From Escherichia coli (GTDB taxonomy: Bacteria > Pseudomonadota > Gammaproteobacteria > Enterobacterales > Enterobacteriaceae): a DNA stretch of 64,000 nucleotides. The translations under genes and the position numbers were made by a program. Location of the stretch: assembly GCF_002854065.1 (NCBI RefSeq), contig NZ_CP024147.1. The stretch is one strand, 5' to 3'. How positions within the stretch are numbered: position 1 is the stretch's first letter; the number at the start of each line of letters is the position of its first letter. Below, piece by piece: positions 35,927 through 40,809 of the stretch. Under the pieces are notes generated by a model. The model had not been told where the DNA came from, searched no databases, and saw only the letters and a program-made list of their open reading frames with translations.

Positions 35927-36140
35927 ATCTAAAATCGCCTTAATATTGGTTTGAGGTAATAAAAATGCATGAAATAACCCTACTTCAGGGATTATCCCTG
36001 GCGGCGTTAGTTTTCGTTCTGGGGATTGATTTTTGGCTGGAAGCCTTATTTTTATTCCGCCCGATAATCGTTTGTACCCTAACTGGGTGATGCTGCCAAC
36101 TTACTGATTTAGTGTATGATGGTGTTTTTGAGGTGCTCCA

Positions 36141-36416
36141 GTGGCTTCTGTTTCTATCAGCTGTCCCTCCTGTTCAGCTACTGACGGGGTGGTGCGTAAC
36201 GGCAAAAGCACCGCCGGACATCAGCGCTATCTCTGCTCTCACTGCCGTAAAACATGGCAACTGCAGTTCACTTACACCGCTTCTCAACCCGGTACGCACC
36301 AGAAAATCATTGATATGGCCATGAATGGCGTTGGATGCCGGGCAACTGCCCGCATTATGGGCGTTGGCCTCAACACGATTTTACGTCACTTAAAAAACTC
36401 AGGCCGCAGTCGGTAA
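36141..36416 (+). CDS. insA: IS1 InsA
   Basis: 91-aa [46 protein letters not shown]..., matching IS1 InsA from memory. Confidence 0.9.
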
Positions 36417-36838
36417 CCTCGCGCATACAGCCGGGCAGTGACGTCATCGTCTGCGCGGAAATGGACGAACAGTGGGGCTATGTCGGGGCTAAATCGCGCC
36501 AGCGCTGGCTGTTTTACGCGTATGACAGTCTCCGGAAGACGGTTGTTGCGCACGTATTCGGTGAACGCACTATGGCGACGCTGGGGCGTCTTATGAGCCT
36601 GCTGTCACCCTTTGACGTGGTGATATGGATGACGGATGGCTGGCCGCTGTATGAATCCCGCCTGAAGGGAAAGCTGCACGTAATCAGCAAGCGATATACG
36701 CAGCGAATTGAGCGGCATAACCTGAATCTGAGGCAGCACCTGGCACGGCTGGGACGGAAGTCGCTGTCGTTCTCAAAATCGGTGGAGCTGCATGACAAAG
36801 TCATCGGGCATTATCTGAACATAAAACACTATCAATAA
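36335..36838 (+). CDS. insB: IS1 InsB (made as InsAB fusion by -1 frameshift)
   Basis: 167-aa ORF in the -1 frame relative to insA; slippery motif TTAAAAAAC at 36390..36398. Confidence 0.85.
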
Positions 36839-37534
36839 GTTGGAGTCATTACCCCCTAACTGGCGCTATTCTCGGTGATATTCAGACTGGCTTAATTACC
36901 GGTGGTCTGACAGAGTTGGCTTTCGCCGGATTAACCCCTGCAGGTGGTGTTCAGCCGCCCAACCCGATTATGGCGGGTCTGATGACCACCGTCATTGCAT
37001 GGTCTACGGGCGTTGATGCCAAAACAGCAATTGGTCTTGGCCTGCCGTTTAGTTTGTTAATGCAGTACGTCATTCTGTTCTTCTATTCCGCTTTCTCATT
37101 ATTTATGACCAAAGCCGATAAATGCGCGAAAGAGGCGGATACGGCAGCGTTTTCCCGACTTAACTGGACAACGATGCTCATCGTCGCTTCAGCGTATGCG
37201 GTGATTGCTTTCCTCTGTACTTACCTGGCACAAGGGGCGATGCAGGCGCTGGTGAAAGCGATGCCCGCCTGGTTGACCCACGGCTTTGAAGTGGCTGGCG
37301 GTATTCTGCCTGCCGTTGGTTTTGGCTTGCTGCTGCGCGTGATGTTCAAAGCACAATATATCCCTTACCTGATCGCCGGCTTTCTGTTTGTTTGCTACAT
37401 CCAGGTCAGCAACCTGTTGCCGGTTGCCGTACTGGGCGCAGGCTTTGCGGTGTATGAGTTTTTCAATGCGAAATCCCGGCAGCAAGCGCAACCGCAGCCC
37501 GTTGCCAGTAAAAATGAAGAAGAGGACTACAGCA

Positions 37535-38326: not shown

Positions 38327-39094
38327 ATGGAACGAGGCACTGCGTCTGGCGGTGCCTCTTTACTTAAGGAATTTCATCCTGTGCAAACCCTTCAGCAAGT
38401 TGAAAACTATACGGCGTTAAGTGAACGTGCCAGCGAATATTTATTGGCCGTGATCCGTAGCAAACCGGATGCCGTGATTTGCCTGGCGACCGGAGCCACG
38501 CCATTACTGACGTATCATTATCTGGTAGAAAAAATCCACCAGCAGCAGGTTGATGTCAGCCAGCTGACCTTCGTCAAGCTCGACGAATGGGTGGATCTGC
38601 CATTAACTATGCCTGGCACCTGCGAAACTTTCCTGCAACAGCATATCGTGCAGCCGCTGGGGCTACGTGAAGACCAGCTCATCAGCTTTCGCTCCGAAGA
38701 GATAAATGAGACAGAGTGCGAACGGGTAACGAACCTGATTGCGCGCAAAGGCGGTCTGGATTTATGCGTTCTCGGATTGGGGAAAAACGGTCATCTTGGG
38801 CTGAACGAACCGGGAGAAAACCTGCAACCGGCCTGCCATATCAGTCAACTTGATGCCAGAACACAGCAACATGAGATGTTAAAAACCGCGGGTCGCCCCG
38901 TGACTCGTGGGATCACCTTAGGCCTGAAGGATATTCTCAATGCCCGCGAGGTTTTGTTACTGGTGACTGGCGAAGGAAAGCAGGATGCGACAGAACGTTT
39001 TCTCACGGCTAAAGTCTCCACCGCTATCCCGGCTTCGTTTTTATGGCTGCATAACCATTTCACATGCGTGATTGATGAGATGTGTCGTCGTTAA
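38327..39094 (+). CDS. agaI: Galactosamine-6-phosphate deaminase/isomerase (NagB-like)
   Basis: 255-aa ORF; the extreme C-terminus may differ from the K-12 protein I recall. Confidence 0.88.
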   Translation: MERGTASGGASLLKEFHPVQTLQQVENYTALSERASEYLLAVIRSKPDAVICLATGATPLLTYHYLVEKIHQQQVDVSQLTFVKLDEWVDLPLTMPGTCETFLQQHIVQPLGLREDQLISFRSEEINETECERVTNLIARKGGLDLCVLGLGKNGHLGLNEPGENLQPACHISQLDARTQQHEMLKTAGRPVTRGITLGLKDILNAREVLLLVTGEGKQDATERFLTAKVSTAIPASFLWLHNHFTCVIDEMCRR

Positions 39095-39217
39095 CATCCC
39101 CCTTAGCCCGGAAAAATAAGAAAAGTGCTCATGAGTTTTGAGCACTTCGTTCCGGTTCAGTATGAACGTCCTCCGTTATTATGCCATCACAATGTAAACC
39201 TAAAGGTTGACAAAAAG

Positions 39218-39577
39218 ATGGTGAAAAATCAGACTAACAAAAAACGTGATAAAAATCTTCCAGTCATGCTGTTAAGTGTGGCCAGAAAGGAATTGTTTGA
39301 TCTTAGTGCAATCGATCGAGCGGAATTCATTGCTGCTATTGACGATTTCGAAGAGTTAGGTCCCTGCTCTTCCCTGGTGAATACCGAAAAAGTTCAAGGG
39401 GATATGTATGAAATTAAAACACATAGTCAGAGCCATTGGTTAAGGGGTTTTTATTTTCACTTTCATCAAGGGCTATGGGTCATCACACATATCTTTGCTA
39501 AAAAAACGAACAAAACGCCTAAAGCCAACATCGAGTTAGGTTTAGCACGTTATAAGGCCTTACTTTCGACAAACTAA
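39218..39577 (+). CDS. Putative type II toxin, RelE/ParE superfamily (Gp49/HigB-like)
   Basis: Track ORF 39125..39577 (GTG start inside a hairpin); likely start ATG 39218 (119 aa) or 39266 (103 aa); C-terminal motif WVITHIFAKKTNKTPKANIELGLARYK resembles the phage Gp49/HigB-like toxin family; about 38% GC by eye. Confidence 0.55.
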   Translation: MVKNQTNKKRDKNLPVMLLSVARKELFDLSAIDRAEFIAAIDDFEELGPCSSLVNTEKVQGDMYEIKTHSQSHWLRGFYFHFHQGLWVITHIFAKKTNKTPKANIELGLARYKALLSTN

Positions 39578-39600
39578 GCAAGCTTCCAGGAGAAATAGAA

Positions 39601-39903
39601 ATGAAGAAAAATAACGAGTTACATCACTGGGAAGACGTGAAAACAGAATTACTTAAGGACGAAGCAACCGCTAATGCTCTTGATGTTGTTGTACAACGCA
39701 AAGCGGTTCTTTCCCAACTCGTGGAAAAACGCAAAGCCCTCAATCTGAGCCAAACTGCCGTGGCGAAGCAACTTGGTGTTACCCGACAAGCGGTGAGTAA
39801 ATTTGAAAAAGGAGAAAGTTCACCAACATTAGATGTTGTTTTTAGCTATGCAAATGCTATCGGCATCGATCTGTTCGGCTCACTAAAAAGACTGATTGTT
39901 TAG
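39601..39903 (+). CDS. Putative antitoxin, XRE-family helix-turn-helix DNA-binding protein
   Basis: 100-aa ORF 24 bp downstream of the toxin with AGGAG-type ribosome-binding site; helix-turn-helix LSQTAVAKQLGVTRQAVSKFEKGESSPTLD. Confidence 0.6.
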   Translation: MKKNNELHHWEDVKTELLKDEATANALDVVVQRKAVLSQLVEKRKALNLSQTAVAKQLGVTRQAVSKFEKGESSPTLDVVFSYANAIGIDLFGSLKRLIV

Positions 39904-39945
39904 CAGGCGGCCCCAGGGTTCTTCAAACGGGGCCACGGAGAGATA

Positions 39946-40809
39946 TCACTCTCCCTGCTGCTCCAGCGCATACTTATACAGCGCATTTTTCTTCACGCCG
40001 TGAATTTCTGCGGCCAGCGCCGCCGCTTTTTTCAGCGGCAGTTCTGCCTGTAGCAGCGCCAGCGTGCGCAGGGCATCGGCGGGTAAGTCTTCTTCCTGTG
40101 CTTTATGACCTTCGACAATCAGCACCATTTCGCCTTTGCGGCGGTTTTCATCTTCCTTTACCCACGCCAGCAGCTCGCCAACGGGCGCGCCGTGAATGGT
40201 TTCCCAGGTTTTGGTTAGCTCACGCGCCAGAACCACATAACGGGATTCGCCTAATACCGCAACGATATCTTCCAGGCTATCTAACAGACGGTGGGTAGAT
40301 TCATAAAAAATCAGCGTGCGCGGCTCCGCTTCAATGGCTTTTAGCGCATCACGGCGGCCTTTTGATTTGGCAGGTAAAAAGCCTTCGTAACAGAAACGGT
40401 CAGAGGGTAAACCTGCGGCGCTTAACGCAGTGATAGCAGCACACGGCCCGGGTAGCGGCACCACGCGAATCCCCGCTTCACGGCAGGTACGCACCAGATG
40501 GTAGCCAGGATCGTTAATTAGCGGCGTTCCGGCATCGGAAACCAGCGCAATGTTTTGCCCCTCTTGCAGCTTCGCCAGCAGCGTTTCGGCTTTTTGTTGT
40601 TCGTTATGGTCGTGCAGTGCAAACAACCGGGCATTAATCCCAAAATGTTGCAGCAATAAACCGGTGTGACGAGTATCCTCGGCGGCAATCAGATCAACGG
40701 CCTGTAATACCTCTAACGCACGCTGGGTGATATCCGCCAGATTGCCGATTGGCGTCGGTACAATGTAAAGCTGGCCCTGAGAATTATCCGCCGATTGGTG
40801 TTGTTTCAT
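39946..40809 (-). CDS. rsmI: 16S rRNA 2-prime-O-ribose C1402 methyltransferase
   Basis: 287-codon ORF beginning [28 protein letters not shown]. Confidence 0.93.

Follow-up and report, generated by a model that had tools for sequence, protein, structure and literature searches.

A probable chromosomal toxin-antitoxin operon of the Gp49/HigB1-like branch in the agaI-rsmI slot of Escherichia coli

Two small co-oriented ORFs lie between agaI and rsmI in the stretch of E. coli DNA analysed here (64,000 nucleotides, referred to below as the window), as an initial annotation of the sequence had described (Table 1). The toxin gene precedes the antitoxin gene, which bears out the HigBA-type order proposed there, while the gap between the ORFs measures 23 nt rather than 24 bp. 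The C-terminal peptide quoted from the first ORF, WVITHIFAKKTNKTPKANIELGLARYK, was located in it and is followed by ALLSTN. The reported AT-richness is also real, with GC of 0.40-0.42 in 300-nt windows over 39000-39900 versus 0.49-0.58 on either side, and 0.404 for the cassette versus 0.526 for 6 kb of flank. Judged from their sequences, these are not chance ORFs, given Pfam E-values of 1.6e-20 (Gp49) and 6.8e-16 (HTH_3) and dN/dS of 0.05-0.07 against orthologues.

Table 1. Coordinates of the module, its neighbours and associated sequence features in the window.
Feature	Coordinates	Strand	Description
agaI	38327-39094		5' flank of the module
Hairpin 3' of agaI	39123-39147		9-bp stem AAGTGCTCA/TGAGCACTT, 7-nt loop
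Toxin ORF, longest form	39125-39577	+	GTG start, 150 aa
Putative operator	39194-39211	+	18-bp imperfect palindrome GTAAACC-TAAA-GGTTGAC
Toxin gene, most likely form	39218-39577	+	119 aa plus stop; from Pfam Gp49, AF2 model and start-codon evidence
Antitoxin Shine-Dalgarno GGAG	39589-39592	+	Read from the sequence, 8 nt before the ATG
Antitoxin gene	39601-39903	+	ATG start, 100 aa plus stop; HigA-like XRE protein
Antitoxin domains			HTH_3, residues 42-91; N-terminal segment, residues 1-38
rsmI	39946-40809	-	Convergent, 42 nt past the antitoxin stop

The hairpin downstream of agaI is terminator-like on the minus strand only, and is also found in GF4-3, which lacks a toxin gene. It belongs to the conserved agaI-distal spacer and is not toxin coding sequence. 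On the plus strand, no intrinsic terminator was found after agaI or after the antitoxin gene, and no third ORF follows the antitoxin before the convergent rsmI. The folding of a GC hairpin at 39909-39934 does not surpass that of shuffled sequence (z -0.73), and an Rfam scan of 38900-40100 returned only a sub-threshold chance match.

Three candidate starts had been proposed for the toxin, namely GTG 39125 inside the hairpin, ATG 39218 and ATG 39266. GTG 39125 does sit within the hairpin, as does the RefSeq start at ATG 39131, yet both forms (150 and 148 aa) were rejected. The frame is mostly closed upstream in orthologues, being interrupted 3-4 codons before the toxin ATG in four of five orthologous or homologous loci, and the 31 extra codons (29 from ATG 39131) are spacer DNA with approximately 92% identity to GF4-3. 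In the 150-aa form, the Pfam domain begins only at residue 55. ATG 39266 (103 aa) is less likely, as Yersinia, Pantoea and other homologues have no Met at this position; no sequence resembling a Shine-Dalgarno element precedes it. Homologues share the basic N-terminal segment and upstream ATG of the 119-aa protein, and on this comparison ATG 39218 is most likely the toxin start. In the RefSeq protein WP_223719239.1 (148 aa), the first 29 residues are most likely spurious and stem from the agaI-distal hairpin region.

The assignment of the first ORF to the Gp49/HigB-like toxins of the RelE superfamily was upheld by the Pfam search, in which the toxin covers the whole Gp49 model (PF05973; E 1.6e-20, 73.4 bits, model positions 1-90 of 90). 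Gp49 is the sole Pfam-A family reported at an independent E-value of 10 or below, and all homologues of the toxin carry PF05973. The HMMs of PF05015 (HigB-like) and PF09907 (HigB) do not match the toxin, nor does any NCBIfam model, and the term "HigB-like" holds only if taken to mean the Gp49 branch that includes Mycobacterium tuberculosis HigB1 and Streptococcus pneumoniae HigB. These two proteins were also matched by sequence in the PDB (HigB1 7nbu/7awk, E 5e-4; S. pneumoniae HigB 6af3_A). An AF2 model (pLDDT 88.3) predicts the element order beta1-alpha1-alpha2-beta2-beta3-beta4-beta5-alpha3, preceded by a disordered basic tail at residues 1-15. Foldseek placed 6af4, 7awk and 7nbu first (TM about 0.65-0.68), followed by RelE and Vibrio cholerae HigB2, with a probability of 1.0 for 6af4, 7awk, 7nbu, 1wmi and 5jaa. 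The model shows a RelE/BECR fold, a type in which two or three helices pack against an antiparallel sheet of four to five strands, with the long terminal helix of the Gp49 branch; the nearest structures are those of S. pneumoniae HigB and M. tuberculosis HigB1.

The active site of HigB1 comprises K58, E66, R68, N73, R77, F93, K95, Q98 and K99, and also K113 (PMC9098466). Seven of the first nine residues align directly in the E. coli toxin (E65, K67, R76, F93, K95, N98 and K99 in the numbering of the 119-aa form), with HigB1 K113 aligned to K113. These aligned positions are mostly invariant or nearly so across the subfamily. In the HMMER alignment, HigB1 K58 and N73 fall one position away from K58 and H73 of the toxin, both of which are invariant.

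The second ORF had been described as a 100-aa XRE helix-turn-helix protein with a good ribosome-binding site, and both points agree with the HTH_3 match (E 6.8e-16) and with the GGAG motif. Full-length homology was detected between the antitoxin and S. pneumoniae HigA (6af3_B), with residues 3-89 aligned to residues 2-85 at an E-value of 1.3e-8. Residues 1-38 correspond in this alignment to the toxin-binding beta1/alpha1/alpha2 segment of HigA. As the toxin matches chain A of the same structure, both partners fit one solved toxin-antitoxin pair.

Upstream of the toxin, the imperfect palindrome ends 6 nt before ATG 39218 and overlaps a Shine-Dalgarno-like AAGG (39203-39206). It is the sole match in the 64-kb window, and this single occurrence by itself is not significant (15 of 100 shuffles). 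The degenerate motif GTMAACY-N4-RGTTKAC is present as a single copy in 16 of 25 loci, 15 of which are toxin-homologue loci, unrelated genomic contexts included, where it lies 4-101 nt upstream of the toxin ATG; in the sixteenth, GF4-3, it survives as a scar. By this recurrence, GTAAACC-N4-GGTTGAC is the likely operator, to which the antitoxin would bind. A weak -10-like CACAAT (39188-39193) abuts the palindrome on the left, and TAAAAT in locus L004 and TATTAA in Yersinia were read by eye at this position. Nothing passed a scan of the upstream region for a sigma-70 consensus promoter. The putative operator overlaps the ribosome-binding site of the toxin and probably also the start of transcription, so antitoxin binding there would make the operon autorepressed.

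[quoted passage not shown] Its mechanism is taken from homologues. For the gp49 family, Table 1 of PMC11980606 lists ribosome-dependent mRNA degradation and a toxin-first gene order. By analogy, the 119-aa toxin would enter the ribosomal A site and cleave mRNA, arresting translation. An antitoxin dimer would neutralise it through the N-terminal strand and helices in a 2:2 complex, while the HTH domains would bind the palindrome; should the labile antitoxin be lost, the toxin would be released.

Two members of the same Pfam family, HigB2 and HigB3 of M. tuberculosis, were non-toxic (PMC9098466), so membership in the Gp49 family does not guarantee activity. This raises the alternative, judged unlikely, that the pair is an attenuated or domesticated toxin-antitoxin homologue, non-toxic and kept as a small regulator or a neutral remnant. 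Such a state would agree with the shortened C-terminal tail of the E. coli toxin, which ends 3-16 residues before the ends of its homologues, and with the toxin stop codon, which has lost the overlap with the antitoxin start seen in the homologues. The missing consensus promoter and the loss of the module from more than 99% of E. coli without obvious consequence point the same way. However, alpha3 is predicted to run in full to residue 118, and the homologue from Yersinia exceeds the E. coli toxin by just 3 residues. Most of the catalytic residues that align are kept and do not vary within the subfamily, and both the antitoxin and the putative operator are intact. Additionally, dN/dS against same-slot orthologues is 0.054 for the toxin and 0.060-0.066 for the antitoxin, indicating at the sequence level that both genes are under strong purifying selection. 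An active toxin-antitoxin operon remains the preferred reading.

Among 5426 complete E. coli genomes, the agaI-rsmI slot holds yraHIJK in approximately 3388, is empty in 1808, contains a LysR+MBL gene pair in 64 and the module in only 12. The expectation of fimbrial genes here was K-12-centred. In the 64 LysR+MBL genomes, these genes are flanked by precise scars of the module, the left one being the operator and the right one the final antitoxin codons. Inspection by eye of the empty variant (49-bp spacer, L026) and of the K-12 variant revealed no such scars. An orthologous pair occupies the same slot in another genus, where the housekeeping flanks share approximately 77% nucleotide identity, and its synonymous divergence (pS 0.63-0.75) is equal to that of agaI and lpoA.

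Outside this slot, relatives occur downstream of deaD in Yersinia, in an ICE-like region of Pantoea, in Erwinia, at locus L013 and upstream of dnaK. A 98-103-aa HTH_3 gene follows the toxin gene in every context fetched via the toxin protein (L004-L014), and an adjacent 100-aa ORF lies beside the toxin homologue in L015. At least six genomic contexts that are unrelated to one another preserve the pairing of toxin and HTH genes.

The low GC relative to the flanks had been taken as a sign of horizontal acquisition, and could be extended to the view that the pair is a remnant of a prophage or mobile element, with a phage Gp49-like protein and a Cro/CI-like repressor, inserted recently. The Pfam family is named after a phage protein, the PHROG family phrog_2523 was matched (E 1.5e-12), relatives occupy different slots in Yersinia, Erwinia and others, and the one in Pantoea is accompanied by TraG/TrwB-family and ICE-type DUF genes. 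Yet the cassette is AT-richer than its own flanks in every host examined, and no integrase, transposase or repeats flank the module within the window. Searches of 50,697 phage and 72,556 plasmid records found no relative at 60% identity or above. Together with the same-slot orthologue, whose pS equals that of flanking genes, and the scars around the LysR+MBL cargo, these results leave a recent mobile insertion highly improbable. From these comparisons, recent horizontal acquisition is not supported, and the module has apparently long resided between agaI and rsmI and was lost or replaced in most E. coli.

A separate question concerns biological role, as the pair had also been put forward as a possible defence-related module. 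In that case it would act mainly against phages by abortive infection, the infection setting the toxin free, and not primarily in addiction or stress response. This possibility is compatible with the toxin-antitoxin mechanism and is a rival on biological role only. Other RelE/ParE-superfamily toxins are implicated in defence (PMC11980606), and PADLOC returned a weak partial match between the toxin core and the C-terminus of NsnC (E 2e-5, 52 residues). Against this, neither protein has a full-length match to a PADLOC system model, and the antitoxin gave generic HTH matches only. Furthermore, the neighbours agaI, rsmI and lpoA are housekeeping genes and form no defence island, and the module has been inherited vertically for a long time in one slot. 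The PADLOC search produced no evidence for a defence role beyond the NsnC match, and such a role is considered quite unlikely as the main one.

The precise scars flanking LysR+MBL suggest that cargo was swapped at the edges of the module. A broader and unlikely proposal is that the module is the ancestral tenant of a four-state slot (module, LysR+MBL, yraHIJK or empty) and that its edges serve as break points for cargo swaps. A recombination hot spot would then be marked or stabilised by the module, or by the antitoxin bound to its operator; alternatively, the module would serve additionally in defence through abortive infection.

In summary terms, the pair is an ordinary chromosomal RelE-superfamily toxin-antitoxin module that is rare in E. 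coli. It cannot be called the least characterised element of the window, as RefSeq already annotates it as a RelE/ParE toxin and an HTH protein. New with respect to that annotation are the probable toxin start at 39218, the candidate operator and the apparently long residence in the slot. For biology at large, one more RelE-superfamily pair carries little weight. More specifically, GTAAACC-N4-GGTTGAC provides a concrete operator candidate for a small, purely chromosomal enterobacterial Gp49/HigB1-like subfamily, which would offer an E. coli-native model of an M. tuberculosis HigB1-type mRNase without a chaperone. The four alternative states of the agaI-rsmI junction show that the fimbrial operon of K-12 cannot be taken as the default, and the history of the locus indicates that clean replacement of a toxin-antitoxin module is possible, with scars left behind.

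Among known systems, HigB-HigA of E. coli K-12 (YgjN-YgjM) and HigBA of Proteus Rts1 resemble the module in their toxin-first order and XRE antitoxin, and their toxins are ribosome-dependent mRNases from the same superfamily. These toxins, however, belong to Pfam families PF09907 and PF05015, whereas the toxin described here matches Gp49 only. Gp49/HTH pairs are also known from Tn3-family transposons and from Paracoccus as Tad-Ata, the latter presumably carried on plasmid pAMI2. These pairs likewise combine a PF05973 toxin with an HTH antitoxin in toxin-first order (PMC7157771), and "tad" is among the names given for PF05973 in Table 1 of PMC11980606. They differ in being transposon- or plasmid-borne with HTH_37 antitoxins, while the E. 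coli pair lies on the chromosome without mobile-element genes nearby, and its antitoxin matches HTH_3 best.

V. cholerae HigB2-HigA2 (5JAA, 8A0X) resembles the module in the RelE fold with a C-terminal helix (Foldseek E 6.5e-4), in the toxin-first order, and in an antitoxin that neutralises through its N-terminal segment and binds operator DNA through a C-terminal HTH. HigB2 has been grouped with "closely related Gp49-like toxins" (PMC9098466), and the name HigB2 is listed under Pfam RelE PF06296 in Table 1 of PMC11980606. Unlike the closer relatives, it was not detected by sequence search, and its TM-score is only about 0.5.

M. tuberculosis HigB1 (Rv1955; 7AWK, 7NBU) is a ribosome-dependent A-site mRNase and the toxin of the TAC system (PMC9098466). 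Among solved structures it gives the best sequence match (E 5e-4, identity about 25-27%). It is also a member of Pfam Gp49, and most of its catalytic residues align with those of the E. coli toxin, although HigB1 R117 has no counterpart. In contrast to the E. coli module, which has no third gene, TAC has three components, among them a SecB-like chaperone and an antitoxin addicted to the chaperone.

S. pneumoniae HigBA (6AF3/6AF4) differs in that toxin identity is only about 17-21% in structural alignment, and in lacking the 15-residue basic disordered N-terminal tail of the E. coli toxin. Its antitoxin binds palindromes in its own promoter, four of which have been reported (PMC7984235); these are unrelated in sequence to the single 18-bp palindrome found here. 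Despite these differences, it shares the toxin-first order and an XRE HTH antitoxin with the module, and its HigB is matched in profile (E 8e-3) and is the best fold match, with the same order of secondary-structure elements (taken for HigB from PMC7984235), including the long C-terminal helix, while the antitoxins are homologous over their full length.

The two genes between agaI and rsmI on the E. coli chromosome form a real, intact and ordinary Gp49/HigB1-type toxin-antitoxin pair that is annotated already, RefSeq/PGAP naming the toxin 'type II toxin-antitoxin system RelE/ParE family toxin' (WP_223719239.1) and the antitoxin 'helix-turn-helix domain-containing protein' (WP_032281646.1). Useful additions are a corrected toxin start, a candidate operator and a history of the agaI-rsmI junction, here called the slot. 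Both ORFs are present where the initial annotation had placed them, 23 nt apart, and the C-terminal toxin peptide it quoted is found in ORF1; the hairpin around GTG 39125 and the good antitoxin ribosome-binding site are likewise borne out.

Features of the toxin-antitoxin pair and its immediate surroundings (window coordinates)
Feature	Coordinates	Strand	Remarks
agaI	38327-39094	+	end of aga operon; left neighbour of the pair
Hairpin	39123-39147		9-bp stem; encloses GTG 39125
ORF1, toxin as first described	39125-39577	+	150 aa from GTG
Imperfect palindrome GTAAACCTAAAGGTTGAC	39194-39211		directly upstream of ATG 39218; arms GTAAACC / GGTTGAC, 6/7 positions match
Antitoxin GGAG			8 nt ahead of antitoxin ATG
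ORF2, antitoxin	39601-39903	+	100 aa
rsmI	39946-40809	-	right neighbour of the pair; lpoA on the same side

The proposed family identities were upheld in searches against Pfam. The Gp49/HigB-like toxin covers the entire Gp49 model (PF05973; positions 1-90 of 90, E 1.6e-20), with no other family reported, and residues 42-91 of the XRE-type antitoxin match HTH_3 (E 6.8e-16). Among solved structures, the best sequence matches of the toxin are Mycobacterium tuberculosis HigB1 (7nbu, 7awk; E 5e-4) and Streptococcus pneumoniae HigB (6af3_A), while nearly the full length of the antitoxin (residues 3-89) aligns to S. pneumoniae HigA (6af3_B; E 1.3e-8); both proteins are therefore homologous to the two chains of one solved toxin-antitoxin complex. 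The AlphaFold2 model of the toxin, built from a 64-sequence alignment, has a mean pLDDT of 88.3 and the element order β1(16-18)-α1(20-28)-α2(31-47)-β2-β3-β4-β5-α3(102-118). In a Foldseek search of the PDB with this model, 6af4, 7awk and 7nbu lead (TM about 0.65-0.68, probability 1.0), followed by archaeal and bacterial RelE and Vibrio cholerae HigB2.

The toxin start had been called ambiguous between GTG 39125, ATG 39218 and ATG 39266, and though several candidates do exist, the evidence converges on ATG 39218. Homologues in other genera measure 122-135 aa; most start where M32 lies in the long ORF (ATG 39218) or only a few residues away from it, and they carry a basic segment (consensus xxKxxKxxPV) ahead of the first strand. 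Several lack a Met where ATG 39266 would fall (e.g., Yersinia ...PIRLL, Pantoea ...PVKLM), and in the sequence as read, nothing resembling a Shine-Dalgarno precedes that codon; ATG 39218 has AAGG 11 nt upstream. The RefSeq product of 148 aa starts at ATG 39131, within the hairpin. Against this start stand the homologue N-termini, the frame upstream of the toxin ATG, which closes after 3-4 codons in four other loci (L004, a metagenomic enterobacterium; L007, Yersinia pseudotuberculosis; L014, upstream of dnaK; L015, a Pseudocitrobacter MAG), and the spacer at 39095-39216, which is ~92% identical to DNA of strain GF4-3, where there is no toxin gene. Since these three lines of evidence agree and ATG 39131 lies inside a hairpin, 29 residues of the RefSeq toxin are most likely spurious. 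Residues 1-15 of the resulting 119-aa toxin are predicted to be disordered (AlphaFold2, pLDDT about 55).

The palindrome directly upstream of this start occurs once in 64 kb, which alone is not significant (expected 0.15; at least one in 15 of 100 shuffles). Across the 25 loci compared at that stage, the motif GTMAACY-N4-RGTTKAC is present exactly once in 16. Fifteen of these loci have a toxin homologue, and there the motif precedes the toxin ATG by 4-101 nt, ending within 10 nt of it in 12 and lying ~100 nt away in an ICE-like region of Pantoea and a Klebsiella sp. locus; the sixteenth is GF4-3, where the palindrome is left as a scar. Because it recurs with the cassette in unrelated contexts, including downstream of deaD in Yersinia, in Erwinia by sugar and cytochrome genes and in L014 upstream of dnaK, the palindrome travels with the cassette and is a natural candidate operator, to which the HTH antitoxin would bind. 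A -10-like hexamer adjoins its left arm (CACAAT in the window, TAAAAT in L004, TATTAA in Yersinia), so bound antitoxin would mask the transcription start and ribosome-binding site. Nothing passed a promoter scan upstream of the toxin, the promoter being weak by consensus, and read-through from agaI is possible, as no T tract follows the hairpin on the plus strand.

The slot is polymorphic across 5426 complete E. coli genomes, with four states: the yraHIJK fimbrial operon of the K-12 type (about 3388 genomes), an empty 49-bp spacer as in Nissle 1917 (1808), a LysR regulator with an MBL-fold hydrolase (64) and the intact pair (12). The pair is 98.4-100% identical among its 12 genomes; identity of their flanks to the window is about 100% in one group and about 96% in the other, so at least two lineages carry it. 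The LysR+MBL variant, represented by GF4-3 (L002), retains the 122 bp that precede the toxin ATG, operator included (L002 6100-6117), and the final seven codons and stop of the antitoxin (CACTAAAAAGACTAATTGTTTAG). These scars flank the cargo at L002 6001-6122 and 8359-8423, the left one running to 1-2 nt short of the toxin ATG position. They are cassette sequence, given that the operator accompanies the cassette in other loci and that SLKRLIV, the end of the antitoxin, has a homologous counterpart in Yersinia NMKKIF; the LysR+MBL state therefore stems from a module-bearing ancestor, and the replacement of the module by the cargo was very precise.

The four states were observed at window 39051-39953 by comparison with L003, GF4-3 and an empty-slot locus (L026). 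In K-12, the yra insertion also replaces part of both neighbours: the final ~14 codons in agaI and the end in rsmI.

The pair is AT-richer than its neighbours, as first noted (GC 0.404 vs 0.526 over a 6-kb flank; 0.40-0.42 vs 0.49-0.58 in windowed GC). The horizontal acquisition drawn from this is not supported as a recent event: L004, of another genus and ~77% identical in its housekeeping flanks, has the window's order of agaI, toxin (79% amino acid identity), antitoxin (85%), rsmI and lpoA, and synonymous divergence of toxin (0.75) and antitoxin (0.63) resembles that of agaI (0.76) and lpoA (0.64). In every host examined, the cassette itself is low in GC (0.43-0.47 vs 0.50-0.64 in flanks). 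In L015, the toxin is 83% identical and the pair adjoins a convergent 287-aa ORF of rsmI length; dN/dS against the L004 and L015 orthologues is 0.054-0.066. Antitoxins of Escherichia sp. E4385 and E4742 are 97-98% identical. Together, these comparisons indicate a long-resident, vertically inherited module, since lost or replaced in most E. coli.

Over deeper time the cassette is mobile, turning up in at least six different contexts. Plasmid (72,556) and phage (50,697) records held no relative at 60% identity or above, and only two 50%-identity clusters among 1.84 billion representatives scored below 1e-10; the subfamily is small, enterobacterial and essentially confined to chromosomes. In Pantoea cypripedii (L010, 1-6387), a 63-65% identical toxin-HTH pair, its palindrome not adjoining the toxin start, lies in the ICE-like region between TraG/TrwB-family and ICE-type DUF genes, a possible vehicle for movement among contexts. 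In Y. pseudotuberculosis (L007), a ~47-bp direct repeat (3783-3830, 4703-4750), unusually long for a target duplication, brackets the homologous cassette downstream of deaD; it comprises a terminator-like hairpin and then a T run, with the antitoxin stop inside the second copy.

Elsewhere in the window, a 768-bp IS1 copy interrupts agaC (36087-36854), and K-12 sequence resumes past it with a 9-10-bp overlap, consistent with target-site duplication. In this strain, the galactosamine PTS IIC component is thus probably non-functional. In the nearly identical strain CUWW06, IS1 lies between kbaY and agaB, and the insertions are thus independent.

The catalytic pocket of HigB1 consists of K58, E66, R68, N73, R77, F93, K95, Q98 and K99, with P-site tRNA contacts K113 and R117 on helix α3 (PMC9098466; residue numbers in the PDB chain differ by 6, K95A appearing as Ala89). 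In HMMER alignments with a single gap set ahead of the conserved KTPK, E66, R68, R77 and Q98 correspond to E65, K67, R76 and N98 of the 119-aa toxin, and F93, K95, K99 and K113 to residues of the same number; K58 and N73 of HigB1 are displaced by one from the invariant K58 and H73 of the toxin, and R117 has no counterpart. Most mapped active-site positions are invariant or nearly so among 18 subfamily members, a retention that supports, by inference from these alignments, an active ribosome-dependent mRNase. Activity is not assured, since M. tuberculosis has non-toxic Gp49 paralogues (PMC9098466). The E. coli toxin stop (TAA 39575-39577) falls 3-16 residues short of the homologues' ends, and α3 is complete in the AlphaFold2 model despite it. 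Toxin stop and antitoxin start overlap in several relatives (L004, L011, L015); this overlap is gone in the window, the two apparently having been separated by a nonsense change. At 39575-39600, similarity to the C-terminal tails of the homologues persists in the frame past the TAA (ASFQEK*).

Established for the pair are the family membership of both proteins and the predicted fold; most active-site residues are kept, selection is purifying, the pairing is obligate and the palindrome is conserved. A possible defence role is not supported, and a TAC system is ruled out because the locus has no chaperone gene. The gp49 family is characterised by ribosome-dependent mRNA degradation and toxin-first order (PMC11980606). 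By analogy with HigB1 (PMC9098466), S. pneumoniae HigBA (PMC7984235) and this family summary, the N-terminal strand and helices of the antitoxin would pair with β1/α1/α2 of the toxin in a 2:2 complex, and an antitoxin HTH dimer at the palindrome would repress the operon; loss of antitoxin would free the toxin, which on the ribosome would cleave A-site mRNA. The topology of the toxin model is the same as that described for S. pneumoniae HigB (PMC7984235).
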